From: an uncultured Clostridia bacterium
Lineage (GTDB): Bacteria > Bacillota > Clostridia > HGM11514
DNA: 64,000 nucleotides
Assembly (NCBI GenBank): GCA_934464705.1
Contig: CAKSKB010000013.1
Location: forward strand, 139-64,138
Direction of reading: 5' to 3'
Shown here: one piece after another, positions 2,302 to 55,441 of the stretch
Position numbering within the stretch: the first letter of the stretch is position 1
How the letters are laid out: every line of letters begins with the position of its first letter
The notes under the pieces: model-generated
What the model saw: only the letters and a program-made list of their open reading frames with translations
The model's database searches: none
What the model was told of the DNA's origin: nothing
Translations under genes and position numbers: made by a program

Positions 2302-3074
2302 AAAAATTGATTTCGCGGCTTTGGCTGTTTCTTATTCTTGCCTTTTTGTATGCGCCTATAATTGTACTTATAATTTATTCTTTCAACAGTTCTAAGACAA
2401 CCGGTCACTGGACGGGTTTTTCGCTAAATTGGTACAAGGAGCTTGTGCGTGACAGAAATATTGTGAATGCACTTATTACCACGGTTGAAGTGGCGGTTCT
2501 TGCATCATTTATATCTACGGTTATCGGTACGGTTTCGGCTATCGCACTGCACGGTTCGGGGGCGTTCTCAAAAAAATTCATGCTCGGTGCGGCGTATCTT
2601 CCGATGCTGAACCCTGATATTGTTACCGGTGTTTCGCTTATGATTCTCTTCGGAAGCATAGGTATGGGGCTTGGGTTCGGAACCATGATGCTTTCGCATA
2701 TTTCGTTTTGCGTGCCGTATGTGATACTTTCGGTGCTGCCGAAGCTTTACGGTCTTAATTCAAACACATTTGAGGCGGCGCTGGATTTGGGTTCAAGCCG
2801 TTTTAACGCTTACAGAAAAGTTGTTTTGCCCGAAATTGTTCCGGGAATAATTTCGGGATTTGTGATTTCCATGACGCTTTCGATAGATGATTTTATGATA
2901 AGCTACTTTAATACCGGCGGCGGTGTTAAAAATCTTTCCATACTTATTTACGGAAGTACCAGAACCGGTGTAAAGCCGGTTTACAATGCACTTTCTGCCA
3001 TTATGTTTCTTGCGGTGCTGATCGTGCTTGTTATCATCAATGTAAGAAAGCTCAAGGCGAGCGGTGAGGAGTAA
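2298..3074 (+). CDS. potC: spermidine/putrescine ABC transporter permease
   Basis: ABC permease with the loop LDLGSSRFNAYRKVVLPEI. Its start overlaps the potB stop. Confidence 0.8.
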   Translation: MKKLISRLWLFLILAFLYAPIIVLIIYSFNSSKTTGHWTGFSLNWYKELVRDRNIVNALITTVEVAVLASFISTVIGTVSAIALHGSGAFSKKFMLGAAYLPMLNPDIVTGVSLMILFGSIGMGLGFGTMMLSHISFCVPYVILSVLPKLYGLNSNTFEAALDLGSSRFNAYRKVVLPEIVPGIISGFVISMTLSIDDFMISYFNTGGGVKNLSILIYGSTRTGVKPVYNALSAIMFLAVLIVLVIINVRKLKASGEE

Positions 3075-3078
3075 CCGG

Positions 3079-5892: not shown

Positions 5893-5897
5893 AAATT

Positions 5898-6923
5898 ATG
5901 AAGAAAATTTTATTGTTTATCATTGCGGCGATGATTGCCGTATCAACCCTCACAGCCTGCGAAAGCAAGCCTGTTTTCACGATTTACAACTGGGAACAGT
6001 ACATTGACGAAAGTGTGGTTGAGGAGTTCCGAAAAGCGCACCCCGATGTCGATGTTGTGTATGAAACATTTTCCACGAACGAAGATATGTATACAAAACT
6101 CAAAAACGGCGGCGGTGATTATGATGTTATTTTTCCGTCGGAATATGTTCTCAAAAAGCTTATCGGTGAGGGCGAGCTGGCAGAACTGAATTTTGATAAT
6201 ATTCCGAACGCAAAGTATATTGCCGAGCAGTGCAAGGGTCAGGATTATGACCCCGAAGGAAAATATACGGTGCCTTATATGTGGGGAACTCTCGGCATAA
6301 TTTATGATAAAACCAAGGTGACCGAAGATGAAATCACATGGGATGTTCTTTTCGGCACAAAGTATAAGGTTATCATGATGAAGTCGATAAGGGACGCTTT
6401 TGCCGCAGCGCTTGCGTCGAACGGCTGCTCAATTAATTCAAAAGACGAGTCTGAGGTTGTTGCCGCAAGGGAAAAACTTTCTAAACAGATGAAGCAGGAC
6501 AATTTTTACGGCTACGGTTTTGACGACATTGACGATAAGATGATAAGAGGCGAGGCGGACGCTGCGCTGATTTACTCCGGTGACGCAATTACGGCGATGA
6601 GAGAGAACAAAAATCTTGCTTACGCCGTTCCGAAAGATGGCAGCAACAAGTGGTTTGACGCTATGGCGGTTCCGAAATCGAGCAAGAACAAGGAACTTGC
6701 AGAGGAATTTATAAACTTTATGTGTGAAACCAAAAACGCAAAGCTTAATGCCGACGAAATCGGATATTATGTTGCTCAGGACGAAGCCGCTGCACTTGTT
6801 GCGGAGGAAACCGGTGTGGAATATCCGACGGTTGCCGAGCTTGAAAACTGTGAAATTTTCGAAACTTTTGACGACAAAACTCTTGAACTTTACAATAAGG
6901 AGTGGACAAAACTGTTCGCATAG
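5898..6923 (+). CDS. potD: spermidine/putrescine ABC transporter substrate-binding lipoprotein
   Basis: Lipoprotein signal MKKILLFIIAAMIAVSTLTAC followed by a PotD/PotF-family periplasmic binding fold of typical length. Confidence 0.8.
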   Translation: MKKILLFIIAAMIAVSTLTACESKPVFTIYNWEQYIDESVVEEFRKAHPDVDVVYETFSTNEDMYTKLKNGGGDYDVIFPSEYVLKKLIGEGELAELNFDNIPNAKYIAEQCKGQDYDPEGKYTVPYMWGTLGIIYDKTKVTEDEITWDVLFGTKYKVIMMKSIRDAFAAALASNGCSINSKDESEVVAAREKLSKQMKQDNFYGYGFDDIDDKMIRGEADAALIYSGDAITAMRENKNLAYAVPKDGSNKWFDAMAVPKSSKNKELAEEFINFMCETKNAKLNADEIGYYVAQDEAAALVAEETGVEYPTVAELENCEIFETFDDKTLELYNKEWTKLFA

Positions 6924-6932
6924 GAGGTCAAT

Positions 6933-7973
6933 ATGGCAGATTACGGTGCTATAGAACTGAAAAATATTACAAAATCTTATGACGGAACCGTCATTCTCGA
7001 AAATTTCAATCTCAAAATTAACAAAGGGGAGTTTGTTACGCTGCTTGGTCCGTCGGGCTGCGGCAAGACCACAACTCTCCGCCTTATCGGCGGTTTTGAA
7101 GTCCCCGATGACGGAGATATTTTGTTTGACGGAAAGCGTATAAATGATGTTCCGCCGAATAAAAGACCGCTCAATACCGTTTTTCAGAAGTATTCGCTTT
7201 TTACACATATGAATATTTTTGAGAATGTTGCATTCGGTCTTAAAATCAAGAAGATAGATAAAAAAATTATTGCCGAAAAGGTTAAGTCTGCGCTTTCTAT
7301 GGTGAATCTTGCCGGCTTTGAAAAGAGAATGCCGGATTCCTTAAGCGGCGGTCAGCAGCAGCGTGTCGCAATTGCGAGAGCGATTGTAAACGAGCCTGAA
7401 GTGCTCCTTTTTGACGAACCTCTCGGTGCGCTTGACCTCAAACTCCGCCAGGAAATGCAGCTGGAACTTAAAAAACTTCAGAAATCACTCGGGATTACCT
7501 TTGTTTATGTTACGCACGACCAGGAGGAGGCGCTCACAATGTCGGATTCCATTGTGGTTATGAGCCACGGAAAAATCCAGCAGTACGGCACCCCGATTGA
7601 TATCTATAATGAACCGGAAAACCGCTTCGTTGCCCGTTTTATAGGCGAGAGTAATATCTATGACGGCGTTATGAACAAGGACTTTGAGGTGAGCTTTTTA
7701 GGCAAAACCTTCGAGTGCGTTGATAAAGGATTTGAGCCTTCAGAAAACATAGATGTTGTTATACGCCCGGAGGATGTTAAAATTGCGGAAAAGGGCTGCG
7801 GTGCACGGGATGCGGTTGTAACATCGGTTATTTTCAAGGGCGTTCATTACGAAATGGAGCTTGACGGAGGGGATTTCAAAATGCTTGTGCATAACACGCT
7901 CTCCTTTCCGGAGGGGAAAACGGTTTCCGTTAATTTCCTTCCGGATGACATACATATTATGAAAAAAAGTTGA
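6933..7973 (+). CDS. potA: spermidine/putrescine ABC transporter ATP-binding protein
   Basis: Walker [10 protein letters not shown], signature [14 protein letters not shown], Walker [12 protein letters not shown], and a C-terminal TOBE-like domain. Confidence 0.9.
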
Positions 7974-7999
7974 CAATCTGCCTGATATTTGTTATAATT
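7971..7999 (+). promoter_or_regulatory. sigma-A type promoter (TTGACA-17-TATAAT) for lipoprotein gene
   Basis: TTGACA at 7971-7976, a 17-nt spacer, then TATAAT at 7994-7999. The RBS AAAAGGGG lies upstream of the ATG at 8023. Confidence 0.6.
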
Positions 8000-8022
8000 A
8001 AAACAGAAAAGGGGCTGTATAT

Positions 8023-8880
8023 ATGAAGAAACTTATTGTACCTGTGATTTTTGCCGCATTGGCGCTGTGTTCGTGCAGCAGTGATAAAACTCCTCCGGAG
8101 CTTGATGTGGCTGACAGAATTTATCAGGGACAGAATGAAAGATTTAACATTAAAAAGTTTTGCACTGCGGAAGACAAGGACGGCAGCGTTACTATAAAAA
8201 CAAAGGGTACGGTTGATGTTTCGGAACTCGGTGATTATCCGATTACGGTTATTGCCGAGGATGAAGCCGGGAATAAGACCGAAAAAGAAGTCACGGTTAC
8301 GGTAAGAAAGAGCAAAAAGAATCTTTCAAATGATACTATTTGCAAGCAGGTGCGTGAGTTTATATTCTCGTTTATCGCCGGGGGACATTCCAATATCGAA
8401 TTCCGCGGATATTCCGATGATATAGGCTTTTTCTCAAAGGCTTATTCCAAAGAGCCCGGTTTCAAAACCGCAAACGGCTTTGAAGGAACGCTTTCCTTCG
8501 AGGCGGTGCAGTATGAGGACTATAAGGCGTCGGTGCTTAATCTGATTTTCTCGATAGATTCCGATGCAATGTGGTATTTCCCGGAAAAAATCGAACTTTC
8601 CGGCGGCGGAGAAAAGCTGGAGTTCCCGGTCAGCGATACTTTTCAGAGCGGCAAGCATTACGGCTTTGCTGCGGCAATCGGCGAGCTTAGCGAGAAAAAG
8701 AATCAGCTTACACCGGATTATAAGCTTACCGAAAGTCTTAAAAAAATGCTTTCGTCCGGCAGCGTTACAATGCGTGCCATCGGCAAAAAGGATTCGCTTG
8801 AAATCAAGCTTACCGATAAGCAAATTACCGATTTTTCAGACATTCTTGCGGTTTATGAGGAACTTCTTACATACTATTAA
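8023..8880 (+). CDS. lipoprotein with Ig-like (DUF5011-like) domain
   Basis: Lipobox LALCSC following the signal peptide. The segment GDYPITVIAEDEAGNKTEKEVTVTV is typical of a bacterial Ig-like fold. Confidence 0.65.
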   Translation: MKKLIVPVIFAALALCSCSSDKTPPELDVADRIYQGQNERFNIKKFCTAEDKDGSVTIKTKGTVDVSELGDYPITVIAEDEAGNKTEKEVTVTVRKSKKNLSNDTICKQVREFIFSFIAGGHSNIEFRGYSDDIGFFSKAYSKEPGFKTANGFEGTLSFEAVQYEDYKASVLNLIFSIDSDAMWYFPEKIELSGGGEKLEFPVSDTFQSGKHYGFAAAIGELSEKKNQLTPDYKLTESLKKMLSSGSVTMRAIGKKDSLEIKLTDKQITDFSDILAVYEELLTYY

Positions 8881-8883
8881 TAA

Positions 8884-8913
8884 AATTACCGGGATTTTTC
8901 CCGGTAATTTTAT
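8884..8913 (+). terminator. rho-independent terminator
   Basis: AATTACCGGGA-tttt-TCCCGGTAATT perfect hairpin followed by a TTTAT run. Confidence 0.7.
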
Positions 8914-8921
8914 CTATTCAC

Positions 8922-8950
8922 TTGACATACCATGAATTTTGGTGTATAAT
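8922..8950 (+). promoter_or_regulatory. consensus sigma-A promoter for tRNA-Gly
   Basis: TTGACA at 8922-8927, a 17-nt spacer, then TATAAT at 8945-8950. The tRNA begins about 12 nt downstream. Confidence 0.65.
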
Positions 8951-8961
8951 ATTTATTGTAC

Positions 8962-9032
8962 GCAGGCATAGTTTAATGGTAAAACGATAGCTTCCCAAGC
9001 TGCAGTTGCGGGTTCGATTCCCGTTGCTTGCT
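8962..9032 (+). tRNA. tRNA-Gly (anticodon CCC)
   Basis: Hand-folded cloverleaf: acceptor GCAGGCA/TGCTTGC, D-stem GTTT/AAAC, anticodon loop TTCCCAA, T-arm GCGGG-TTCGATT-CCCGT, discriminator T. No CCA is encoded. Confidence 0.8.
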
Positions 9033-9044
9033 TTATCCGAAATT

Positions 9045-9095
9045 CCGCATAAATGCTGATTTTTCCAGTGTTTATGCGGGTTTTCTTTATTTTTC
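9045..9095 (+). terminator. putative terminator after tRNA-Gly
   Basis: CCGCATAAA ... TTTATGCGG stem with a large loop, then a TTTTCTTTATTTTTC run. Confidence 0.4.
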
Positions 9096-9139
9096 ACAAG
9101 GAAAATATTGGATGAAAAATGATGAAAATTGATATTAAA

Positions 9140-9161
9140 TGTTCGCAAAATGTTCGCAAAA
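9140..9161. repeat. exact 11-nt tandem direct repeat TGTTCGCAAAA x2 in the promoter region
   Basis: Read directly from the sequence, about 50 nt upstream of the ATG at 9210. Confidence 0.6.
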
Positions 9162-9209
9162 TATGGTTAATCAAAATCGAATTAATTGCTATATGGATAT
9201 GCTTAATAT

Positions 9210-9869
9210 ATGAATATAAAAGAAATAGTTAAAAGGTACATATTATTTATTGTAAGTTTGTTTTTTTCTGCACTCGGGGTTGCGGTTACGAAGCATGGCG
9301 AACTTGGTGTATCTCCGATTTCATCGATTGCAAATGTGATGAGCTGTAAATACGAGGCTGTTTCGCTGGGGACATGGCTTGTAATATGGAATTGTATTCT
9401 GATTTTGGGACAGGTCGTGATTCTCAAAAAAAGCTTTAGACCGATTCAGCTGCTTCAGCTGCCGCTTTCTTTGCTTTTCGGTATTTTTACGGATATCGGA
9501 ATGATTTTTGCGGATTATATATCTGTTCCGAATTACTTTGTGCGGATTTCTCTTGTTGTTTGCGGCACGGTTATACTTGCATTCGGAATAGCGCTGTCGG
9601 TCATTGCGAATGTTGTAATGAACTCAGGAGAGGCGTTTGTGAAGGCGGTTCCTGACAAATCAGGTATGAAATTCGGGAATGTAAAAATCGGGTTCGATAT
9701 ATGCTGCGTTGTGCTTTCGGTTGCTTTATCGCTGATATTTTTTGGCGGAAGCATTGTCGGAACGAGAGAGGGAACAATCCTTACCGCTCTTTTTACAGGC
9801 GTGGCGGTAAAGATTTTTATAAAGATTTTTGAGAGCCCGCTCGAAAAAATTCTTACGCAGGAGGAATAG
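9210..9869 (+). CDS. YczE/YyaS-like integral membrane protein
   Basis: 219 aa polytopic membrane protein. The N-terminal LFIVSLFFSALGVAVTKHGELGVSPISS matches the YczE family pattern. Confidence 0.55.
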   Translation: MNIKEIVKRYILFIVSLFFSALGVAVTKHGELGVSPISSIANVMSCKYEAVSLGTWLVIWNCILILGQVVILKKSFRPIQLLQLPLSLLFGIFTDIGMIFADYISVPNYFVRISLVVCGTVILAFGIALSVIANVVMNSGEAFVKAVPDKSGMKFGNVKIGFDICCVVLSVALSLIFFGGSIVGTREGTILTALFTGVAVKIFIKIFESPLEKILTQEE

Positions 9870-9872
9870 GTA

Positions 9873-11204
9873 ATGGAAAGAAATTTAACTACGGGCAGTG
9901 TATTTAAAAATATCATTTATTTTTCACTGCCGTTTTTTCTCTCATATTTTTTGCAGACTCTTTACGGAATGGCGGACCTTTTTATAATCGGTCAGTTCGG
10001 AAAAGTTGCGGATATAACGGCAGTCTCGATAGGAAGCCAGGTTATGCATATGCTCACCGTCATGATAGTGGGGCTGGCGATGGGGTCAACGGTTGTGATA
10101 AGCCGTTATGTTGGGGCTGAAAATAAAGACGGAGTTTCTGTTTCCATCGGCAATACCGTTACGCTTTTTGCGGTTGTTTCGGCGGCAGCTACGGTTTTGC
10201 TGCTTTTGTTTGTAAACTCGATAGTTTCGGTAATGTCAACCCCGATTGAGGCGGCTTCGGGTGCCCGTGAATATCTCACAATTTGCTTTATCGGTGTGCC
10301 TTTTATAACGGCATATAATATATTAAGCTCGATTTTCAGAGGGCTTGGCGATTCGAAAAGCCCCATGTATTTTATTGCCGTTTCGTGCGCTGCAAATATT
10401 GTTCTTGATTATATTTTTATCGGTGCGCTTGATATGGGACCTGCCGGGGCGGCGCTCGGCACAACGCTTTCGCAGACAATAAGCGTTATAATTGCGCTTA
10501 TTGTTATAAAAAACAGAGATATGGGTATCCGTATTTCAAAAGCAGATTTTAAACCTGTGCGAAAAATTACAGGGCAGATTATGCGCGTCGGAATCCCGAT
10601 TGCACTTCAGGACGGTTTTATACAGATTGCTTTTATTGTTATAACGGTAATTGCAAACAGACGAGGACTTACAGATTCCGCCGCTGTAGGAATAGTTGAA
10701 AAGCTTATAGGAATTTTCTTTCTTGTTCCTTCCTCCATGCTTTCGTCGGTATCTGCCCTTGCGGCCCAGAATTTCGGTGCCGGAAAGCCGGAGCGCGCAA
10801 GGCTTACTCTTAAATATGCCGCATGCCTTGCGGTTGGGTTCGGGCTTATAGTTTCGCTTATTACGCAGTTTGTTCCGGAGTTGCTTGTGTCGGCTTTTAC
10901 GGACGACGCCGCAGTTACCGTCAGCGGAGGTCAGTATCTGAAAAGTTATGTTTGGGACTGTGCTTTTGCCGGTGCGACATTTGCTTTCAGCGGATATTTC
11001 TGTGCACTTGAAAGGTCGGAAATATCGTTTATCCATAACATTATTTCAATTTTGCTTGTGCGTATTCCCGTCGCATACTTTATGTCGGCAATGTACAAAA
11101 ATTCGCTGTTTCCGATGGGGTTTGCATCACCGCTCGGGTCGCTGTTGTCGCTTTTTATATGCATAGCGGCATATATTATTTTGAATAAGAAAAAGACGGC
11201 TTAA
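9873..11204 (+). CDS. MATE family efflux transporter
   Basis: 443 aa with about 12 TM segments. The N-terminal LPFFLSYFLQTLYGMADLFIIGQ is a typical MATE/NorM signature. Confidence 0.85.
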   Translation: MERNLTTGSVFKNIIYFSLPFFLSYFLQTLYGMADLFIIGQFGKVADITAVSIGSQVMHMLTVMIVGLAMGSTVVISRYVGAENKDGVSVSIGNTVTLFAVVSAAATVLLLLFVNSIVSVMSTPIEAASGAREYLTICFIGVPFITAYNILSSIFRGLGDSKSPMYFIAVSCAANIVLDYIFIGALDMGPAGAALGTTLSQTISVIIALIVIKNRDMGIRISKADFKPVRKITGQIMRVGIPIALQDGFIQIAFIVITVIANRRGLTDSAAVGIVEKLIGIFFLVPSSMLSSVSALAAQNFGAGKPERARLTLKYAACLAVGFGLIVSLITQFVPELLVSAFTDDAAVTVSGGQYLKSYVWDCAFAGATFAFSGYFCALERSEISFIHNIISILLVRIPVAYFMSAMYKNSLFPMGFASPLGSLLSLFICIAAYIILNKKKTA

Positions 11205-26094: not shown

Positions 26095-26820
26095 ATGTCA
26101 GGACATTCCAAGTGGAATAATATTAAGAACAAAAAAGAAAAGACCGATGCTGCGCGCGGTAAGATTTTTACCAAAATAGGCAGAGAAATTGCCGTTGCCG
26201 TCAAGGCGGGAGGACCTGACCCTGCCTCAAATTCAAAGCTCAAGGATATAATTGCGAAGGCAAAGGCAAACAATATGCCCAATGATAATATCGAAAGAAG
26301 TATCAAAAAGGCTTCGGGTGAGCTTGGCGCTACCGAATTTTTTGAGTTTTCTTACGAAGGCTACGGTCCTTCGGGCGTTGCGGTAATCGTCGATATAATG
26401 ACCGATAACAAAAACCGTATTGCAAGCGAGGTTCGCCATGCCTTTGATAAATTCGGCGGCAATCTCGGGCAGACGGGCTGCGTTGGTTTTATGTTTGATA
26501 AAAAAGGCGTTATCGCCATTGAGGAACAGGACGGCGTTGATGAGGACACCGTTACAATGGCTGCTCTGGAAGCCGGTGCGGACGATGTTTCGTACGATGA
26601 CGGCGTGTTTGAGGTGCTTACGGATCCGGAGGATTTTTCCGCAGTGCGTGAAGCCCTGGAGGCCGACGGCTATGAATTTATAAGCGCCGAGGTCGAGATG
26701 GTTCCGCAGACCTATGTTAAGCTTGATGACGAAAAGGATGCGGCAAACATGGAAAAAATGATTGATATGCTGGAAGACAACGATGATGTTCAGCATGTTT
26801 GGCACAACTGGGAAGAATAA
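26095..26820 (+). CDS. YebC/PmpR family DNA-binding transcriptional regulator
   Basis: [14 protein letters not shown] start and a length of about 241 aa. Confidence 0.85.
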
Positions 26821-26830
26821 TTTTACTTTG

Positions 26831-26874
26831 AAAATCTCCGAAAATAACCATGCATTATTTTTGGAGATTTTTTA
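26831..26874 (+). terminator. strong rho-independent terminator
   Basis: 17-bp stem AAAATCTCCGAAAATAA / TTATTTTTGGAGATTTT with a 7-nt loop, followed by a T-run. Confidence 0.7.
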
Positions 26875-26889
26875 TATAGGTGATTAATT

Positions 26890-27576
26890 TTGAACATTAC
26901 AGACGAGCTTTTTAGACTGAGGGACGAAAAATACAAGGAGTTTCACTCGAAACTGATACCGAATATTCCTCCCGAAACCATTATCGGGGTGAGAACGCCC
27001 GTTTTGAGGAAGTTTTCCAAGGAGATTTTCGGTACGCCCGAGGCGGAGGCGTTTGTGTCGGTTCCCGAAAAACACAGATACTATGATGAAAAGAATCTGC
27101 ATGCCATGCTGATTGAGCCGATTAAGGATTTTGATACCGCTATGGATTTCTGCGAAAAGTTTTTGGGGATTATCGACAACTGGGCGACCTGCGATATGTA
27201 TTCGCCGAAGGCTTTCGGGAAAAACACATCAAGGCTTGAACCTAAAATCCGCGAGTGGATGAAATCAGACAAGGTATATACCGTCAGATTTTCAATGAAC
27301 ATGGCTATGCGGTATTTTCTCGGTGATAATTTCAGTCCTGAATTTATGCGTATGATTGCCGCAATCCGCTCCGATGAGTACTATATTAATATGATGATTG
27401 CGTGGTATTTTGCCACGGCGCTTGCAAAGCAGTATGACGCTGCGGAAAAGTATATTTCGGGGCGCCGCCTTTCGCCGTGGGTGCATAACAAGGCAATTCA
27501 AAAGGCGATTGAAAGCAGACGGATTACCGGTGAGCAAAAATCATATCTCAGAACGCTTAAAGTTAAGGACAGGTGA
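26890..27576 (+). CDS. DNA alkylation repair protein (AlkD/AlkC-like HEAT-repeat)
   Basis: 228 aa helical-repeat protein. TTG start preceded by the RBS AGGTGA. Confidence 0.6.
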   Translation: MNITDELFRLRDEKYKEFHSKLIPNIPPETIIGVRTPVLRKFSKEIFGTPEAEAFVSVPEKHRYYDEKNLHAMLIEPIKDFDTAMDFCEKFLGIIDNWATCDMYSPKAFGKNTSRLEPKIREWMKSDKVYTVRFSMNMAMRYFLGDNFSPEFMRMIAAIRSDEYYINMMIAWYFATALAKQYDAAEKYISGRRLSPWVHNKAIQKAIESRRITGEQKSYLRTLKVKDR

Positions 27577-27580
27577 GTTT

Positions 27581-28204
27581 ATGACCGCTAAAAAAAGATT
27601 TGAAAATTTTTGGTATTATCATAAAAATCATGTTATTATAGTGTGTGTTTTGGCCGTATTTGTAATTATAATTTCGTATCAGATGTTTTCTAAAACGAAT
27701 TATGACAATACGGTTGTGGTTGCCGGGAATATCCCTGCGACGCTGGCGGATGATACGCAGTTTGTGAAAGATATTTCGCCTGTGTTCAAAGATGTCAACG
27801 GTGACGGTGAGGTAAACATCAATACCACATTTATTCCGTTCGGCGGTGAAATTGGCTCGACAACCGATGCGGAAATGGCTCTTGCGTATCCGCAGCAGCT
27901 GCAGGCGGTTCTGGCGGCGGACGATGCAAATATTTTCATCGTGACAGAGGATATTCTCATAAGCTACGGCCGTGACAAGGCTTTTGCCGATGTATCGGAT
28001 ATTCAGAGGGAACTCGGATTGACGGACTGCAAATACCAAAACGGTATACTTATAAAAAACCGTGAGCTCATTTCGGCACTTTCGCTTTATGACGATGTGG
28101 ATTATTATATTGCGGTAAGGGTGAATGACGGGCTTTCAAAGCTTACGGGCAGCAAAAAAATAAAATATATAAATGCATATAATTTTATGCGCGAGCTTGC
28201 ATAA
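27581..28204 (+). CDS. membrane-anchored hypothetical protein
   Basis: N-terminal TM helix VIIVCVLAVFVIIISY followed by a soluble domain. It is the first gene of a tightly spaced four-gene cluster. Confidence 0.5.
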   Translation: MTAKKRFENFWYYHKNHVIIVCVLAVFVIIISYQMFSKTNYDNTVVVAGNIPATLADDTQFVKDISPVFKDVNGDGEVNINTTFIPFGGEIGSTTDAEMALAYPQQLQAVLAADDANIFIVTEDILISYGRDKAFADVSDIQRELGLTDCKYQNGILIKNRELISALSLYDDVDYYIAVRVNDGLSKLTGSKKIKYINAYNFMRELA

Positions 28205-28222
28205 TAACGGGAGGGGATAAAA

Positions 28223-30211
28223 ATGGTTGATTTTTTTAAGCGGCTCAATATTTATTCGGAAGGGCTTGAAAATGTAAAAAAGCTGTATGAAAACGGAAAT
28301 CCCGACGCGGCATTTTCGGAATACAGGAAAGTTCTTGCAAAGAGGTTTTCCGCCTATCCTGCAGATTATTTTAAGATATACGACTATCCCGCTGAAGAAC
28401 CCAAGCTTTTGCTCAGCAACAAGATTTCGCTTTTGGGGTATGAACCGATTGATTTGGGGAAGCCGATAAACTGGCTTGCACAGCCGCACGGAGATAAGCA
28501 GTGGCAGTCGCATCTCGGGTATATGCGCTGGGTGCTGCCGCTTATTGCCGAGTACAAAAAAACGGGAGATAAAAGATACGCCGATAAATGGTCTGAGATT
28601 ATGAATGATTTTCTCGATAATCATCCGTGGGGCGTTAAGGGTCTTGAATATCACATTTCAAGACCGATGTATCTTAACGAATACAAATTCAAATGCGGTG
28701 GAGAAGGGCAGACACCCGGGTATCTCGGAGGAAGCTGGATTGGACTTGCGGCATCCGCAAGAATTTCGAATTTTACGGTTTGCCTGGCGCATATTATGGA
28801 TGATGAGTATATTTCCGACAAGCTTATTTCAAAAATACTGCTTTCGCTTGCCGTTGACCACTGCGACGTTATATTTAACAATGCAAGACGGTATACGCCA
28901 AATCAGTTTGCGGACGGTGCGTGTGCCCTGCTTAAGTTTTCCATACTTTTTTGGGAGATGAAGGAGGCTCCGGCAGCATATCTTGTCGGCATGCAAAGGT
29001 TTGAGGAAGCGGTCAAAGCCGTGCTTTTGCCGGACGGCTCCGACCTTGAACAGAGTTTTAATTACAATATGGGGCTTCCCAGGATATTTTACGATATATA
29101 CGGGCTTTTCGGAGATTCGCCGAATGAAAGAATAAAGAAGCTGAGAGCCGATATTGACAAAAGATGTAAATTTTTGTTTGATATTTCAAACGAAAACTTT
29201 GAGATTCCTTCAATTGCCAAGACGCATGCATGCTGCGAAAAGGCGTATTTTTCTGAGCTTGAGCAAAAATACGGATTAAATCTTTTCGGAAGAGAATACA
29301 AGTCGGCAGCTTTTCCTTACGGCGGATATTATGTGTCAAAAACGGACGGCAGATATTTGTTTTTCAAGGCATCCAGAGAATCAGTAGGACATTCGCATGA
29401 GGACTGCAATTCGATTATACTTCGGGCGGACGGAATGCCGCTGCTTATTGACTGCTCAAATTATAATTACTCCGATGATGACGACTCTATGGCAATTAAT
29501 AATTACATGTATTCGACCCTTGCGCACAACAGTGTGAGTGTTGACGGTCTTTCGCAGATTACAGTACCTTTTAAAAATGCGCTTTCAAAGGAATATCTTA
29601 AAGAATTAGCCGAAAAGCCGATTGATACTCTCTGCGTCGTTTCTTCCGAATACGATGCGTTTGAAGGTGTTTATGACGGTGTTTACGGTGATGCTTCGTG
29701 GTACAGCAACAACCGCATTTCGGAAGGTATTCCGAAACTGAAGGTTGTGAGAGCAAAACATAACAGAAAGGTTGTTTATTTAAAGACGGCGGATGTGTAT
29801 ATCGTAATTGACCGAGTTTTTGCGGATAAACAGCATAAGTACACGGTTTCATGGAATTTAGCTCCCGAGTATCTGCCTGAGAATGTTCTGACCGACGGTG
29901 AAATAAGAATACGGAAAACCGGCATGCCGTCGCTTTTGATAAAAAGCTTTTCCGACATTCCGGCGGTTTTTGAAAAGTTTTACGGTGACAAGCTTAAGGG
30001 AAGGTATTGCGTCAGCTACGGCAAAACCGAAAAATGTGTTCATGTTGAACAGTCTTACACCGCGAAAAATCTCACTGCGGTGCACATTCTGGCGCCTGAT
30101 TTCAGTGAAAGTTTCGAAAGCTCGAAACTTTCGGGAGATATATTTGAATTTAACTGTGATGGCAAAAAATACAGATTAAATATAAATACATTGAAATATG
30201 AGGTGAATTGA
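28223..30211 (+). CDS. heparinase II/III-like protein (alginate-lyase-like N-domain + heparinase II/III C-domain), cytoplasmic
   Basis: 662 aa with no signal peptide. The N-terminal alpha/alpha-toroid region contains the HPWG and H..GYMRW motifs. The C-terminal beta-sandwich contains HSHEDCNS and NSVSVDG regions, consistent with the heparinase II/III fold. Confidence 0.6.
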   Translation: MVDFFKRLNIYSEGLENVKKLYENGNPDAAFSEYRKVLAKRFSAYPADYFKIYDYPAEEPKLLLSNKISLLGYEPIDLGKPINWLAQPHGDKQWQSHLGYMRWVLPLIAEYKKTGDKRYADKWSEIMNDFLDNHPWGVKGLEYHISRPMYLNEYKFKCGGEGQTPGYLGGSWIGLAASARISNFTVCLAHIMDDEYISDKLISKILLSLAVDHCDVIFNNARRYTPNQFADGACALLKFSILFWEMKEAPAAYLVGMQRFEEAVKAVLLPDGSDLEQSFNYNMGLPRIFYDIYGLFGDSPNERIKKLRADIDKRCKFLFDISNENFEIPSIAKTHACCEKAYFSELEQKYGLNLFGREYKSAAFPYGGYYVSKTDGRYLFFKASRESVGHSHEDCNSIILRADGMPLLIDCSNYNYSDDDDSMAINNYMYSTLAHNSVSVDGLSQITVPFKNALSKEYLKELAEKPIDTLCVVSSEYDAFEGVYDGVYGDASWYSNNRISEGIPKLKVVRAKHNRKVVYLKTADVYIVIDRVFADKQHKYTVSWNLAPEYLPENVLTDGEIRIRKTGMPSLLIKSFSDIPAVFEKFYGDKLKGRYCVSYGKTEKCVHVEQSYTAKNLTAVHILAPDFSESFESSKLSGDIFEFNCDGKKYRLNINTLKYEVN

Positions 30212-32013
30212 AAATGCATTACAGTGTACATGACGGGCAAGAACTTACGGAGGCGTTTGCGGAGTTCAAAGACGGCGACAGCATAAGTCTTAAAACAGGG
30301 ATTTATGAAATTTCAAAAACACTTGAGTTCGGTGCTGACAACATTACCGTTGACGGAAACGGCTCTGCCCTGAAGGGGAGCGTACGGATACCGGTAAGCG
30401 GCAGCGGAGTTGTTGAAATCGACCTCAGGGAGCACGGAATAACCGATTTCGGCAGCTTCGGCGGAGGTCCGTACGAGGATTTCTGGAAAGGCGAGGTCAG
30501 TATTCCTAAGCCGCACCTTACGGACCTCGGTCCGGGGCTTGAACTGTATTTTGACGGCAAGCTTATGCCGATTTCAAGATATCCGAAAGAGGGATTCCTC
30601 AAAATAACAGAGGCGCTCGGTGAAACACCACTGATGTTCAAGGGCAAGCGCAACGGTTCGGTTGAGGGTGTATTCAGATGCAATGACGATAAAATCAAGG
30701 ACTTTAAGGATACCGACCAGCTCCTGCTTGTGGGGTACTGGAATGCCGACTGGGCAACACAGCGCCACACCGTAAAATCAATCGGTTCTGACGGCGTTAT
30801 TGAGGTAAACAAGCCATGGCACACCTTCGGATACCGTGACGGGGAATGCTTTACGGACGAGATAGGCGGAAAGTTTTGCGTTTTAAATGCCGCAGAGGCG
30901 GTGACGGCTCCCGGGGATTGGTGCATAAATCGCAGAACGGGGAAGCTTTATGTTTATCTTTTTGAGGGACAGGATTATGTTGAAGTTTCTGTTGCCGGGG
31001 ATTTGTTTTACGGCGACGGAAGAAGAAATATTAAAATTTCGGACCTCAATCTTTCGCAGTGCAGAAAAAGCGGCATATGCTTTGAAAATTCGCACGGAAT
31101 AACAATTGAAAACTGCAATGTAAAAAACAGCGGAGCGTGGGGTATTCTGGGTGAAAACTGCATGCATATGAGCGTCCGTGACTGTAGTGTTTCGGAAACC
31201 GGAGGCGGAGGAATTGCCCTTTGGGGAGGCGACAGAAACACGCTTACGCCTTCGGGAAATGTCATTTCACGCTGCGAGATTACAAAAATTGCCCGCTGGC
31301 ACAAAACATATATGGCGGCAATCGAAATCGGCGGTGTGGGCGGCTGTGTATCGGAAAATAAAATTCATGATGTTCCGCATTTCGGGATAGTGTTCAGCGG
31401 AAACAATCAAATTATCGAGAAAAACGATATAGGCAATGCCTGCTATGAATCGAACGATGCAGGGGCAATCTATACCGGGCGGGATTATTCCTACAGAGGG
31501 CATATAATAAGGTATAATTACCTTCACGATATGTACGGTTTTGAAAACAGAGGATGCATTGGCTTGTATTTTGACGATGCAATGTCTTCTGCGGAAGTGT
31601 ACGGCAATGTGTTTGCGAATATGCCGTATATTGCGCTGCTTCTCGGCGGCGGAAGGGATTTTGATATTCACGACAATATGTTTTACGGCTGCAAAATGGC
31701 GGTTATGGTTGACGCAAGAGCGTCAAGGTGGAAGAATTTCAGCGAAAATATCATGAAGGTTCTGGGGAAAGTCGATTATAAAGGCGAAATATGGAAAAAC
31801 GCATATCCTAAGCTTTATGATTTTCTCGATAATGACCCTCTTATGCCGCTCGGAAACAAACTTTACGGCAACTGTGTTGTCGGCGGTGACGGTTTCTGCA
31901 TAGAGTCAAAAGAGGTTGCGGATTTAATAGATATGAAAGGCAACAAATTTGTTCATCAGTCAAAGCCCGGTGAACACGAAATCAATCATTATAATTGGTA
32001 CTACGTCAATTAA
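30208..32013 (+). CDS. right-handed parallel beta-helix repeat protein (pectin-lyase fold)
   Basis: 601 aa with repeated NC/GI coils (ENSHGITIENCNVKNSGAWGI, GNVISRCEI, GNNQIIEKNDIG). ATGA overlap with the upstream gene, and no signal peptide. Confidence 0.6.
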   Translation: MKMHYSVHDGQELTEAFAEFKDGDSISLKTGIYEISKTLEFGADNITVDGNGSALKGSVRIPVSGSGVVEIDLREHGITDFGSFGGGPYEDFWKGEVSIPKPHLTDLGPGLELYFDGKLMPISRYPKEGFLKITEALGETPLMFKGKRNGSVEGVFRCNDDKIKDFKDTDQLLLVGYWNADWATQRHTVKSIGSDGVIEVNKPWHTFGYRDGECFTDEIGGKFCVLNAAEAVTAPGDWCINRRTGKLYVYLFEGQDYVEVSVAGDLFYGDGRRNIKISDLNLSQCRKSGICFENSHGITIENCNVKNSGAWGILGENCMHMSVRDCSVSETGGGGIALWGGDRNTLTPSGNVISRCEITKIARWHKTYMAAIEIGGVGGCVSENKIHDVPHFGIVFSGNNQIIEKNDIGNACYESNDAGAIYTGRDYSYRGHIIRYNYLHDMYGFENRGCIGLYFDDAMSSAEVYGNVFANMPYIALLLGGGRDFDIHDNMFYGCKMAVMVDARASRWKNFSENIMKVLGKVDYKGEIWKNAYPKLYDFLDNDPLMPLGNKLYGNCVVGGDGFCIESKEVADLIDMKGNKFVHQSKPGEHEINHYNWYYVN

Positions 32014-32027
32014 AGGAGAATTTTTCA

Positions 32028-32863
32028 TGAAACTTAAGTATTTGGGGACCGCTGCTGCGGAAGGTATTCCGGCGGTTTTCTGCGATTGTGAGAATTGCGT
32101 AAAGTCAAAAAAACTCGGCGGAAAAAACATAAGAACGAGAAGCCAGGCGCTGGTCGACGATACACTCCTTATTGATTTCCCGGCGGATACATATATGCAT
32201 TATCTGAGAGAAAACTTTGAGCTCAGCAAAATCAGGTCCTGTCTTATAACTCATTCGCACTGCGACCATCTTTATGCAGATGAAATCGAGAACCGCAAGG
32301 ACGGTTTTGCGAATCTTTCCGATAAGCAGCCGCTTACATTTTATTCATGGGACAGCGGATATAAAATGATTATGACGGAAAAAATAAATGGATATGTTCC
32401 CGATAGCTATGTCAAGGCGGTTAACATTAAACCGTCCGTTGATTTTGAGGTTGAAGGGTATAATGTTACGCCGATAAGGGCGGCTCATGATCCTAAGTCC
32501 GACCCGGTGGTTTATGCTATTGAAAAGGACGGCAAAAGACTTTTGTATTTTAACGATTCGAGCGAGCTTCATGAGGACGGCATGGAAGCGCTGCGGAGAT
32601 TCAGGAATAAACCGTTTGACCTTATTTCCCTCGACTGCACAATGGGCTGCAACGAATTTGAATGGGAAGGTCATATGGGGCTTTCAAGATGCGCCGGCTT
32701 TCGCGATACCCTCAAAGCCGAAGGCGTTGCGGATGAACATACAATTTTCATTCTTAATCATTTTTCACATAACGGAAAAAGCGTTGTATATGATGATTTT
32801 GTGAAGATTGCCGCCGAAAATGATTTTCTTGTGTCGTATGACGGTATGGAAATTGAATTTTAG
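32028..32863 (+). CDS. PhnP-like MBL-fold phosphodiesterase
   Basis: N-terminal CDCENC zinc-knuckle and the HSHCDH metallo-beta-lactamase motif. The size and layout are PhnP-like. Confidence 0.6.
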
Positions 32864-32884: not shown

Positions 32885-32913
32885 TTGAATTAACAGAAAA
32901 ATTGTGCTATACT
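32885..32913 (+). promoter_or_regulatory. sigma-A promoter for ilvE (TTGAAT-17-TATACT)
   Basis: Read directly from the sequence. Confidence 0.5.
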
Positions 32914-32950: not shown

Positions 32951-33976
32951 ATGGAAAAGAAAAATATCGATTGGGGCAGTCTCGGATTTGCTTATATGAA
33001 GACTGACAAAAGATATGTCTCCGACTATAAAGACGGCGCATGGGACGAAGGCCGCCTTATGGAGGATAATACAATTGTTTTGAACGAGTGTGCCTGCGTT
33101 TTGCAGTATGCCCAGACCTGCTTCGAAGGTCTTAAAGCATATACAACCGAAAAGGGCAATATAGTTGTTTTTCGCCCCGACTTAAACGGCGAAAGACTTG
33201 AAAATTCCGCAAAAAGGCTTGAAATGCCTGTTTTTCCGAAAGAAAGATTTGTTGATGCGGTGGTAAAAACCGTTGAAGCAAATGCGGCTTATGTTCCGCC
33301 TTACGGAAGCGGTGCAACTCTTTATTTAAGACCGTATATGTTCGGTACAAATGCTGTTATCGGCGTTAAACCGGCAACGGAATTCCAGTTCAGGCTTTTC
33401 GGAACGCCTGTAGGTCCGTACTTCAAAGGCGGCGTTAAGCCCCTTACAATCAGAGTATGCGATTTTGACAGGGCTGCTCCGAACGGTACCGGTCATGTAA
33501 AGGCAGGGCTTAACTATGCAATGAGTCTTCATGCCATCGTTGACGCACACAATCAGGGCTTTGACGAAAATATGTATCTTGACGCAAAAACCAGAACCTT
33601 CGTTGAAGAAACCGGCGGTGCTAACTTTATATTTGTAACCAAGGATAACAAGGTTGTAACGCCTAAGTCAAACAGTATTCTTCCTTCGATTACAAGGCGC
33701 TCGCTTATGTATGTTGCAAAGGAATATCTCGGTCTTGAAGCCGAAGAAAGAGAAATCAGGTTCGATGAGGTTAAGGACTTCGCCGAATGCGGACTTTGCG
33801 GAACAGCGGCTGTTATTTCTCCTGTCGGAAAAATCGTTGACCACGGCAAGGAAATATGCATGCCGAGCGGCATGACGGAAATGGGACCGATTACAAAGAA
33901 GCTTTACGATACTCTTACGGGTATTCAGATGGGCAGAATTGAGGCTCCGGAAGGCTGGATTAAGGTTATTAAATAA
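32951..33976 (+). CDS. ilvE: branched-chain amino acid aminotransferase
   Basis: 341 aa class IV PLP fold with the ETGGANFIFV and GTAAVISPVG regions. Confidence 0.85.
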   Translation: MEKKNIDWGSLGFAYMKTDKRYVSDYKDGAWDEGRLMEDNTIVLNECACVLQYAQTCFEGLKAYTTEKGNIVVFRPDLNGERLENSAKRLEMPVFPKERFVDAVVKTVEANAAYVPPYGSGATLYLRPYMFGTNAVIGVKPATEFQFRLFGTPVGPYFKGGVKPLTIRVCDFDRAAPNGTGHVKAGLNYAMSLHAIVDAHNQGFDENMYLDAKTRTFVEETGGANFIFVTKDNKVVTPKSNSILPSITRRSLMYVAKEYLGLEAEEREIRFDEVKDFAECGLCGTAAVISPVGKIVDHGKEICMPSGMTEMGPITKKLYDTLTGIQMGRIEAPEGWIKVIK

Positions 33977-34057: not shown

Positions 34058-35023
34058 GTGATAAACTTGAAAAAATGTGTAAAAGGTATGGTATTCGGCG
34101 CTGCTGCGGCTACGGCGGTACTTGGTTCTTATGCTGCTGCAAGACTTATGGTAAAAGTCGCATTTGACAGAAAGCTGCCGGAGGTTACGAAATTTGCATC
34201 GGGGCGTATTTCCGGAGGAGGAAAAAATCCCGAGTTTGAAACTGTCCGCGACAATGCTGCCGAAGCGCTTGAAAACACGGTGCACGAAACGGTTCAAATT
34301 TTTGCACATGACGGCGTAAAGCTTGCCGGCAGGCTTTTTCCGTGCGAAAATGCAGAGAGGATTATAATCGCTTTTCACGGCTGGCGTTCTTCATGGAACC
34401 GTGATTTCGGAATGATTTCGGATTTCTGGCATAAGGCTCACTGCAGCGTTCTTTATGTTGAGCAGAGAGGGCAGAACGGAAGCGGCGGAGAATATATGGG
34501 CTTCGGGCTTACCGAAAGGCTTGACTGCAGGGACTGGGTAAAATGGACGGCGCAGCGCTTCGGAAATGATATTCCGCTCTATCTTGCAGGCGTATCAATG
34601 GGTGCGGCGACTGTGCTTATGGCGTCCAACCTTGATTTTTGCAGAAAAATTAACGGAATTATTGCCGACTGCGGTTTTACTTCTCCCAAGGCGATATGCA
34701 GTTATGTTTCAAACAACAATCTGCATATTCCGTATAAGCTTCACGGAGCCGCTATTGACTCTGTAAGCAAAAGGAAAATTCATATGAAACTGGGCGATTT
34801 TTCGGCGCCCGAGGCTCTTTCCGAAACGAGTATTCCGGTGCTATTTATCCACGGAACCGACGATAAGTTTGTTCCGGTGGAAATGTCATATGAAAATTAC
34901 AAAGCATGTGCTTCCGAAAAGCGGCTTGTTATAGTTCCGGGTGCGGATCATACGATGAGTTTTTATGTTGAGCCGGAAGTTTGCAAAAAGGCTATTTTGG
35001 ATTTCTGGAAGGATTTTGATTAA
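34058..35023 (+). CDS. alpha/beta hydrolase family protein
   Basis: GVSMGAA nucleophile elbow with a C-terminal Asp/His region. The start may instead be the ATG at 34088, which has an AAAGGT RBS. Confidence 0.65.
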   Translation: MINLKKCVKGMVFGAAAATAVLGSYAAARLMVKVAFDRKLPEVTKFASGRISGGGKNPEFETVRDNAAEALENTVHETVQIFAHDGVKLAGRLFPCENAERIIIAFHGWRSSWNRDFGMISDFWHKAHCSVLYVEQRGQNGSGGEYMGFGLTERLDCRDWVKWTAQRFGNDIPLYLAGVSMGAATVLMASNLDFCRKINGIIADCGFTSPKAICSYVSNNNLHIPYKLHGAAIDSVSKRKIHMKLGDFSAPEALSETSIPVLFIHGTDDKFVPVEMSYENYKACASEKRLVIVPGADHTMSFYVEPEVCKKAILDFWKDFD

Positions 35024-54165: not shown

Positions 54166-55441
54166 AATATTGCCGCAGCAGTATCGGCGTGGTACCCGGG
54201 TATGGAAGCCGGCAATGCGATTGCGGATGTTCTTTGCGGCAAGGTGAATCCTTCCGCGAAACTTACGATTACAATGGCGTCAAGTCTGGATGATTATTTG
54301 TCTACGAATAATTTCGGATCACAGGATACTGTATATAAGGAAGATATTTTTGTAGGCTACAGGCAGTTTGAAACATTTGACCCGACCTACAGCAAGGTTA
54401 ATTATCCCTTCGGGCACGGTCTGTCGTATACAAGCTTTTCGATTACTCCTTCCGTGACTGCCGCAAACGGCATATTAATGTCAGTGCTACGGTCAAAAAT
54501 ACAGGAAGCGTTGCCGGAAAAGAGGTTGCACAGGTCTATTTTTCAGCGCCGCAGAGAAATGCGTCTGATGTAAAACTTTCAAAGCCCGGCAAAGAGCTTG
54601 CGGTTTTCGGAAAAACCAAAACCCTTGCCCCCGGTGAATCGCAGACGCTGGAACTTTCGTTCCCGATAAGCGATATGGCAAGCTATGATGATATGGGAAA
54701 AGCCGGGCACAAGTCGGCTTATGTTCCGGAAACCGGAGATTATAAAATTTATGTCGGCAACTCTATAAAAAATACCGGCGAAAACGGCGTTCATGCTTCT
54801 GAGCGTTATGACCTTCTTACAACCGTTGCAAGGGGCGAGTGGGGCTTTGACGGATACTTCACTACCAACCGGGGCGGTTACACCGATGTGCCTTGCAAGA
54901 TTATTATAAAAGCAGGTAACGGCCTTATTCTTGGACACAATACCTATGGGGCGCCGGATCAGCTTAAGACAGCCCTTAAAGACGGGACACTCAAACGCGG
55001 TGAAATTGAAGTTTGCATAAAGCGTGTTCTTGAAATGATGCTTAAAACAACTGCTCCCGATAAGTTAAAAGACGACGCAGTTAAAATCAGCTCTATAGGC
55101 AGAATCAGAATCCCGGCTGTTGAGTATGTAAGTGCTTCATCGGGAGTCGGCACGGAAGCCGTTAAGACTCAGGACAGCTCCGGGAATTCCTTGAAAGACC
55201 CCGCAAACAACTATTTCAAGTCGGTTATGGAATGAAGATTTGGATAAAGGGCGATGCCGCACATTCTCTGACATTGCCTGTAATGATTGACGCACAGACA
55301 GCAGCTGCTGCGTCACCGAATACCGCATTTTCAGTCAAGGTGTTCGGATCTGCAATTACTTCCGATAATACTTATGTATTTAAGCATTATGTCGGCTCAA
55401 GCGAGGGCGAAGAAATGGAAGTAACCTATAAAGATGAATAA
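54166..55441 (+). pseudogene. 5'-truncated, frameshifted GH3 beta-glucosidase remnant
   Basis: Coding similarity begins at 54166 with AAVSAWYPGMEAGNAIADVLCGKVNPS...YPFGHGLSYTSF, which is the C-terminal domain of a GH3. A -1 frameshift falls near 54470. The GH3 FnIII-like domain continues in another frame (NVSATVKNTGSVAGKEVAQVYF...GDYKIYVGNS) to 55235. A further small ORF follows to 55441. The roughly 400-aa N-terminal catalytic domain is absent. Confidence 0.6.

Follow-up and report, generated by a model that had tools for sequence, protein, structure and literature searches.

Do tightly packed genes in a bacterial genome also share a pathway? This question is raised by four genes at 27581-32863 on the plus strand of a 64,000-nt window (the whole stretch of DNA that was analysed, to which all coordinates refer) from the genome of an uncultured gut Clostridia. 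The genes encode a membrane-anchored protein, a heparinase II/III-like lyase, a beta-helix protein, and a PhnP-like protein of the metallo-beta-lactamase (MBL) fold, and the original prediction, which was made from the DNA letters, had joined all four into one cytoplasmic glycan-processing module. We confirmed that the four genes are present on the plus strand, and our analysis favours, with a probability of roughly 0.55, a smaller arrangement, in which the lyase and the beta-helix protein would work together in the cytoplasm as a two-enzyme unit on imported uronic-acid oligosaccharides and the membrane protein and the MBL protein would be unrelated neighbours. The four genes are listed below.

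27581-28204, plus strand: membrane-anchored protein, 207 aa, with one transmembrane helix (start ATG 27581)
28223-30211, plus strand: lyase-like protein, 662 aa, with the Pfam domains Hepar_II_III_N and Hepar_II_III_C
30214-32013, plus strand: beta-helix protein, 599 aa (601 aa from the alternative start TTG 30208), with a Pfam Beta_helix match
32027-32863, plus strand: PhnP-like MBL-fold protein, 278 aa, with a Pfam Lactamase_B_2 match

Results

The lyase is related to heparinase III

The folds assigned to the three enzymes in the original prediction were borne out by Pfam, profile, and structure matches. The 662-aa protein matched Hepar_II_III_N at residues 4-295 (9.4e-24) and Hepar_II_III_C at residues 359-550 (2e-19). 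When a family profile built from 21 sequences was searched against the PDB, it matched the heparinase III structures of polysaccharide lyase (PL) family 12 at full length (4mmi, 1.3e-50; 4mmh, 1.6e-50; 5jmd, 1.7e-49), the alignment to 4mmi consisting of three segments over chain residues 8-616. The architecture of PL12, an alpha/alpha toroid N-domain followed by an antiparallel beta-sandwich C-domain, was hence observed over the full length of the protein. The window sequence alone gave a weak match to 5jmd (E 2.6e-12), and the matches of the profile to PL15 and PL39 were also weak (C-domain with 3a0o, E 2.3e-05).

The catalytic Asn/Tyr/His set of PL12 was found as well. Asn227, Tyr281, and His390 of the window lyase are invariant in 21 homologues and align with chain positions N216, Y270, and H400 of 4mmi/4mmh, which, assuming a 24-residue offset, would be the published catalytic residues Asn240, Tyr294, and His424 of 4MMH (PMC12088678). 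The scores of the lyase in the HepC equivalog models of NCBIfam were 37-43 bits, far under the cut-offs of 600-700, and the protein is therefore a relative of PL12 and not an orthologue of the characterised enzymes. Its subfamily is small, comprising 41 clusters mainly from Clostridia and Paenibacillus.

To evaluate the presence of signal peptides, we used the highest Kyte-Doolittle hydrophobicity value over 15 residues in the first 60 aa, with the membrane protein, which reached 3.57, as the reference. The values were 0.16 for the lyase, 0.29 for the beta-helix protein, and 1.14 for the MBL protein, in agreement with the earlier statement that none of the three carries a signal peptide. Signal peptides were also absent from 32 of 32 closer lyase homologues, being present in more distant relatives, and from 112 of 112 Clostridial beta-helix homologues. 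The original prediction had called this absence unexpected for polysaccharide lyases. Characterised PL12 enzymes are secreted or periplasmic; however, PL15, PL17, and PL22 are known to include cytoplasmic exo-lyases, and with 32 close homologues sharing the trait it is not surprising here.

Thus, the window lyase shares architecture and catalytic residues with the PL12 heparinase III enzymes (Pedobacter heparinus HepC, 4MMH/4MMI; Bacteroides thetaiotaomicron BT4657, 5JMD) but differs from them in having no signal peptide, in its low HepC scores, and in belonging to a small subfamily of its own. As a toroid-plus-sandwich lyase without a signal peptide, it resembles the cytoplasmic exo-type oligo-uronate lyases that act on imported oligosaccharides (PL15 Atu3025, 3A0O; PL17; PL22), whereas its sequence is much nearer to PL12 than to PL15, PL17, or PL39; an exo mode of action would be conceivable by analogy. 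Taken together, the 662-aa protein is predicted from its sequence to be a cytoplasmic PL12-related poly- or oligosaccharide lyase.

The beta-helix protein resembles GH141 and GH120 enzymes in architecture

The product of the next gene matched Pfam Beta_helix (4.8e-17). In its AlphaFold2 model (predicted local distance difference test score, pLDDT, 88.7; predicted template-modelling score 0.90), residues 1-72 and those from 267 on form helix coils, and a sheet domain is inserted between them at about 100-260. In a Foldseek search with this model, the top match was BT_1002 (5mqp) of glycoside hydrolase (GH) family 141, with an E of 1.8e-15 and a template-modelling (TM) score of 0.53, followed by GH120 XylC and GH110, and these ranked above capsule lyases, tailspikes, and GH28. 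BT_1002 has its beta-helix at 1-108 and 296-619 and a beta-sandwich insert at 109-295 (PMC10154630), and the same architecture, a beta-helix broken by a beta-sandwich insert, was found in the window protein. It has in common with GH141 (BT_1002 of B. thetaiotaomicron; C. thermocellum XynE) and with GH120 XylC (3VST) a length of about 600 aa, but the identity is only 13-14% and the window protein is cytoplasmic. On the evidence of the model, the protein is thus GH141/GH120-like in architecture, and we do not file it as a member of GH141.

In a profile search against the PDB, the nearest entry was 9rx2 (4.1e-14), followed by 5mqp (9.2e-07). The 9rx2 protein, of 717 aa, is labelled only "Parallel beta-helix repeat protein", and a literature search for PDB 9RX2 returned no paper; it shares with the window beta-helix family the motifs IIExNEI...nDaGaIY and IIRxNYxH. 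The acidic residues E404, D417, D456, D457, and D502 are invariant in the family. This family is large, with 429 genome loci encoding a relative and several copies per genome, since L001 and L014 come from one assembly, as do L002 and L013 (numbers with L denote homologue loci). A reading of the protein as a mannuronan C5-epimerase was considered and rejected; no epimerase-labelled entry was present among the top 50 structural matches in Foldseek.

Lyase and beta-helix families share a locus type

The two genes are almost contiguous. The original prediction had placed an ATGA overlap at 30208, but the letters there are TTGA and the genes do not overlap. The likelier beta-helix start is ATG 30214, 2 nt past the lyase stop, because it lies 7 nt after GAGGTG, is also the start of an identical database protein of 599 aa, and encodes a Met that is invariant in 18 homologues.

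We then compared the genomic contexts of both families. Next to the closest lyases outside the window's own relatives (44-47% identity; L081, L083, and L098), a GH88 gene follows directly and a GH3 gene precedes, as does a GH2 gene in two of the three; S-layer homology (SLH) proteins and a very large secreted beta-helix protein are encoded upstream. GH88 unsaturated glucuronyl hydrolase is an enzyme that consumes lyase products. The slot after the lyase is occupied by GH88 in these three loci and by a beta-helix gene in the window, L087, and L114, where there is no GH88 within 8 kb; a search with the GH88 proteins of L081 and L083 did not detect GH88 anywhere in the window. A Paenibacillus lyase homologue adjoins ATP-binding cassette (ABC) permeases of the CUT1 type, a DUF3502 binding protein, and an AraC regulator. 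Homologues of the beta-helix protein in 25 other Clostridia loci have a similar company, namely AraC (9 of 25), CUT1 ABC permeases with a DUF3502 protein, GH3, GH2, GH94, and tandem giant secreted beta-helix paralogues, and the paralogues L014 and L013, from the same assemblies as L001 and L002, are directly upstream of sugar ABC permeases. Furthermore, accessory genes of the lyase operons in L081 and L083 are homologous to neighbours of beta-helix genes in L026, L016, L009, L010, and L008, with an E of 1.5e-60 for a secreted protein of about 955 aa and of 9e-75 for GH3. The lyase and beta-helix families are therefore alternative cytoplasmic components of one locus type.

The order of a lyase directly followed by a beta-helix protein recurs in two distant lineages. 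In L087, both proteins are without signal peptides, and the beta-helix protein is positive for GH141_M, the model of the GH141 insertion domain (Pfam PF21231), and 24% identical to that of the window (E 2e-16). In L114, both have signal peptides, and the beta-helix protein is 25% identical (E 6e-38) and shares the family motifs. By a rough estimate that assumes 5-20 beta-helix genes per genome of 4000-6000 genes and about 36 independent lyase loci, about 0.1-0.25 such adjacencies would be expected by chance, and two were seen outside the window's close relatives.

In addition, four loci (L005, L008, L016, and L026; about 2000-10000 in each) were observed to have a cytoplasmic beta-helix homologue preceded by one or two giant beta-helix paralogues of 1100-1436 aa, one of which carries Cu_amine_oxidN1 and a weak GH141_M match. 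A secreted protein of about 900 aa with no Pfam match is also encoded upstream in these loci. This is a recurrent, undescribed locus type.

The triad is confined to close relatives

To search for conservation of the triad of lyase, beta-helix, and MBL genes, we used 80 loci of beta-helix homologues with 10-kb flanks, which were searched with all window proteins, and, on the lyase side, 9 loci from an exact-protein look-up and 41 metagenome loci. Only two of the 80 loci, L001 (94% identity) and L002 (76%), have genes for the lyase, the MBL protein, and the membrane protein alongside the beta-helix gene. Collinearity in these two loci extends to the genes for YebC, the DNA-alkylation protein, and IlvE, which indicates that they come from organisms closely related to the source. 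In the remaining 78 beta-helix loci (identity of 57% or less), no lyase, MBL, or membrane-protein gene is present within 10 kb. From the lyase side, an MBL gene was found only in L097, which is as similar to the window as L002 and is probably from the same species; it was absent from about 45 other lyase loci. As a result, the triad together with the membrane protein was seen only in L001, L002, and L097 (69-96% identical), with collinearity from YebC through IlvE, and being confined to such wholly collinear close relatives it does not represent a conserved module, contrary to the original prediction. That prediction had named, as one outcome telling against it, a lack of synteny elsewhere combined with independent promoters and terminators; the former is what we found beyond close relatives, whereas the latter were not seen inside the string.

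The MBL and membrane proteins belong to large, independent families

The MBL protein matched Pfam Lactamase_B_2 with 1.6e-11, and its profile matched PhnP (3g1p, 3.4e-12) best in the PDB, followed by 6b9v and PqqB; the one paper found to contain 6B9V deals with RNA hydrolysis by the MBL IMP-1. The motif THSHCDH and the knuckle FCDCENC (C19/C21/C24) are invariant in 16 homologues, and the latter aligns with CECAAC of 3g1p. The protein, of the phosphodiesterase type, thus has the MBL fold of E. coli PhnP (3G1P), which is the phosphodiesterase of the carbon-phosphorus (C-P) lyase pathway, with its HxHxDH motif and N-terminal Cys3 zinc knuckle. It differs from PhnP in its low score in the equivalog model TIGR03307 (63.6 bits against a cut-off of 272.25), in having no phn operon, and in being one of a very large Clostridial family whose genes occur in diverse surroundings. 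No phn genes were recognised among the inspected open reading frames of the window, and the neighbours of the MBL gene are the beta-helix gene and ilvE.

At about 60% identity, the homologues of the MBL protein form at least 6302 clusters, around 150 times the 41 of the lyase subfamily. The four homologues that were looked up have four different settings: one follows an HtrA-type protease; one is divergent from AraC and upstream of a major facilitator superfamily (MFS) transporter; one follows sensor kinases; and one is flanked by FtsH and a uracil-DNA glycosylase. Neither a lyase nor a beta-helix gene is near the MBL homologue in any of the four. The MBL gene is a widely conserved stand-alone gene of Clostridia that is here probably just co-transcribed. 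As to its substrate, a precomputed Pfam match to Anti-Pycsar_Apyc1 (PF23023) on close homologues, which is a hint only and was not reproduced with a local Pfam copy, suggests, if anything, one of the cyclic-nucleotide type.

A separate observation concerns the downstream side of MBL genes. In L090-L093, all from a single lineage, the gene directly after the MBL homologue encodes a small protein that matches Hydrolase_4 (alpha/beta hydrolase) faintly. In the window, an alpha/beta hydrolase (34058-35023) is encoded two genes downstream of the MBL gene, and the likeness may be a coincidence.

The membrane protein has a transmembrane helix at about residues 18-35 and a conserved layout, in which ENYWYYYKWH is followed by the single helix and by DxNGDG. 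Its family comprises 579 relatives at an E of 1e-3 or less, and no Pfam match was obtained in any of the 27 members scanned. An AlphaFold2 model (pLDDT 85.5) gave no significant Foldseek match; a one-lobe resemblance to sugar-binding proteins (E of 0.012 or more, TM score about 0.3) was not used. A 35%-identical homologue is located directly after lysS, with no carbohydrate-active enzyme nearby. The membrane protein is probably outside the glycan unit.

Short spacing is the background state of the window

The genes and signals that flank the four genes are as follows.

26095-26820, plus strand: YebC-like gene (open reading frame)
26890-27576, plus strand: DNA-alkylation-repair-like gene, 228 aa (Pfam DNA_alkylation, 2.2e-13; stop TGA 27574-27576)
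32885-32913, plus strand: promoter-like site, TTGAAT-17-TATACT, TG-extended (a consensus match only)
32951-33976, plus strand: ilvE (open reading frame)

The choice of left edge for the proposed module is arbitrary: the co-directional string continues upstream with the DNA-alkylation-repair gene, which has an unrelated function and whose end is only 4 nt from the membrane-protein gene. The gaps inside the four-gene set are 18, 2, and 13 nt, in place of the 15-19 nt that had been reported. Throughout the window, same-strand neighbours are 20 nt or less apart in 28 of 48 pairs (58%; median of 13 nt, a count made with heuristic start calls), and the tightly spaced genes include plainly unrelated ones, such as those for an alpha/beta hydrolase, a P-type ATPase, and a small alarmone synthetase. 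Short spacing is therefore the background state and provides no evidence of shared function.

Inside the string, a promoter/terminator scan gave nothing that exceeded the shuffle background; there were 11 terminator-like sites, against 10.2 expected from shuffles. At the right-hand side, the 87-nt gap between the MBL gene and ilvE contains the promoter-like site, which is likely to mark the end of the co-transcribed string, as judged from its consensus letters. The genes from that for DNA alkylation through that for the MBL protein are probably co-transcribed. At the left-hand side, the 69-nt gap at 26820-26889 between the YebC-like and DNA-alkylation genes has an A/T-rich inverted repeat, AAAATCTCC ... 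GGAGATTTT, followed by a T run. This repeat, at which the terminator scan made no call, could be a weak terminator, in which case the DNA-alkylation gene would be the first of the string. Horizontal insertion of the lyase/beta-helix pair was also considered; a coarse 2-kb profile showed no obvious anomaly in guanine-cytosine content or skew across 28-32 kb.

Discussion

We propose that the lyase and the beta-helix protein act in the cytoplasm on common substrates. The lyase would act by beta-elimination at a 4-linked uronic acid of an imported oligosaccharide, with Asn227 neutralising the carboxylate and Tyr281/His390 serving as the base and acid, as extrapolated from PL12. The beta-helix protein, as a putative GH141/GH120-like glycosidase, would release from these oligosaccharides a sugar in a neighbouring or capping position. 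The unsaturated product could be accounted for by an exo-acting lyase, or be processed by GH88/GH105 encoded elsewhere in the genome or, least likely, by the beta-helix enzyme in the role of GH88. The membrane protein and the MBL protein would be in the string owing to the tight packing of the genome and not to a common pathway; we exclude them because they belong to large, independently distributed families. With regard to the earlier suggestion of an imported acidic oligosaccharide, the substrate is in line with the contexts of the lyase and beta-helix families, and the part assigned to the MBL and membrane proteins is not retained. Homologues of both enzymes occur in Gram-positive polysaccharide-utilisation operons, which have an ABC importer, AraC, GH3/GH2, and GH88. 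The window pair differs from such operons in being apart from any transporter, regulator, or GH88 and embedded among housekeeping genes.

Several observations weigh against this proposal. No gene for a transporter, a regulator, GH88/GH105, or uronate catabolism is near the pair in the window, and the import and downstream steps are therefore unaccounted for. The pairing is rare from the beta-helix side, with a lyase in 2 of the 80 loci, both from close relatives. For the beta-helix protein, a hydrolase function is only predicted, with a lyase or epimerase activity as the alternative: GH141_M gave no match in the window protein at an E of 1 or less (homologues P0008 and P0113 scored 25.7 and 23.2 against a cut-off of 27), which is a further difference from BT_1002, and the profile alignment to 5mqp stops before the second Asp of BT_1002 (D523/D564), while the first Asp is opposite the non-acidic WHKTY. 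The MBL gene, moreover, is likely to be co-expressed with the pair, as it begins 13 nt past the beta-helix gene with its own ribosome-binding site and no terminator between. The PhnP-like MBL protein may have been recruited to the pair in this lineage.

Among the other explanations, the one that deserves the most attention, although we consider it doubtful, is that the lyase and the beta-helix protein are merely adjacent, each serving a different glycan with loci elsewhere, and that the whole string consists of unrelated genes. The 78 beta-helix loci that have no lyase within 10 kb are consistent with it, as are the pairing of the closest outside lyases with GH88 and not with a beta-helix gene, the spacing of 20 nt or less in 58% of same-strand pairs whatever their function, and the similar embedding of a GH78-like gene in a Pot-type ABC operon elsewhere in the window. 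Against these, however, the lyase stop and the beta-helix start are separated by 2 nt, adjacent pairs recur in the distant lineages of L087 and L114, and both families share homologous locus accessories. It is unlikely that the pair trims or turns over the capsule, exopolysaccharide, or teichuronic acid of the cell itself from the cytoplasmic side. The cytoplasmic location of the enzymes, the lack of a nearby transporter or regulator, and the membrane-anchored protein upstream would suit such a role, and a 40%-identical lyase homologue (L086) is 4-8 kb from glycosyltransferase, epimerase, and Polysacc_synt_2 genes; yet those biosynthesis genes are on the opposite strand, with the lyase lying in a run of the hydrogenase/NADH-dehydrogenase type, and both families are found predominantly in catabolic settings (GH88, GH3, GH2, GH94, AraC, and sugar ABC importers).

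The least probable of the alternatives, which we regard as very unlikely, is the original one, in which all four proteins form one cytoplasmic pathway for a phosphodiester-linked glycan, with the MBL protein opening or removing a phosphodiester or cyclic phosphate. The PhnP-like family does hydrolyse cyclic phosphodiesters, the MBL gene follows the beta-helix gene as closely as described above, and the arrangement is kept in L001, L002, and L097. However, these are the loci in which the entire neighbourhood is collinear, and MBL genes are lacking from the remaining 78 beta-helix loci and from all further lyase loci; MBL clusters (at least 6302) far outnumber those of the lyase, their members are found in four unrelated contexts, and a homologue of the membrane protein follows lysS. 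Nothing points to teichoic acid or a phosphoglycan, for which no gene is nearby. A pathway of lyase, beta-helix protein, and phosphodiesterase is thus not supported. Returning to the two-enzyme unit, a specific form of it is that the beta-helix enzyme replaces GH88 and processes the 4,5-unsaturated uronate ends left by the lyase, as the occupancy of the slot after the lyase might indicate. We consider this improbable; if true, it would represent a new activity for a GH141-like fold and a new two-enzyme route. A weaker variant of this reading would have the PhnP-like MBL protein recruited to the pair among the close relatives.

The observation that started this analysis is real, and the arrangement is biologically ordinary. 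Both enzymes are distant members of established kinds, that is, PL12-related lyases and GH141-like beta-helix enzymes. The value of the finding is modest and lies in two cytoplasmic subfamilies of gut Clostridia, a small PL12-related lyase group and a large beta-helix family of GH141-like architecture with several copies per genome, where enzymes acting on acidic glycans from the host, plants, or microbes might be discovered. It also provides the lesson that, in a tightly packed Firmicute genome, the shortness of intergenic gaps alone does not define a pathway.

Other features of the window

The GH78-like protein mentioned above is encoded at 3079-5892 on the plus strand (Bac_rhamnosid6H, 3e-25; 942 aa from 3064, about 937 aa from ATG 3079). 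Its gene lies inside an apparent PotABCD-type ABC operon (1477-7973), between genes for two permeases on the upstream side and for a lipoprotein binding protein and an ATPase on the downstream side, with gaps of 4-9 nt, and it represents another cytoplasmic carbohydrate-active enzyme among apparently unrelated genes.

Near the right-hand end of the window, the plus strand encodes two GH3 fragments, at 54202-54573 and 54675-55235, in reversed order, the C-terminal piece coming first and the N-terminal piece after it, which suggests a decayed or rearranged GH3 gene. The fragments are nearest (47% and 33%) to the GH3 protein that is directly downstream of a 55%-identical beta-helix homologue in L005. 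They are followed on the same strand by three consecutive genes for large proteins at 55669-59607, 59619-60596, and 60593-64000 (1312, about 325, and more than 1136 aa, the last cut off by the end of the window). Whether these secreted proteins (55.7-64 kb) could be extracellular partners of the kind found in L081- or L026-type loci was considered, and this was rejected, no similarity being detected. All three have signal-peptide-like N-termini, and the first two are without a significant Pfam match.

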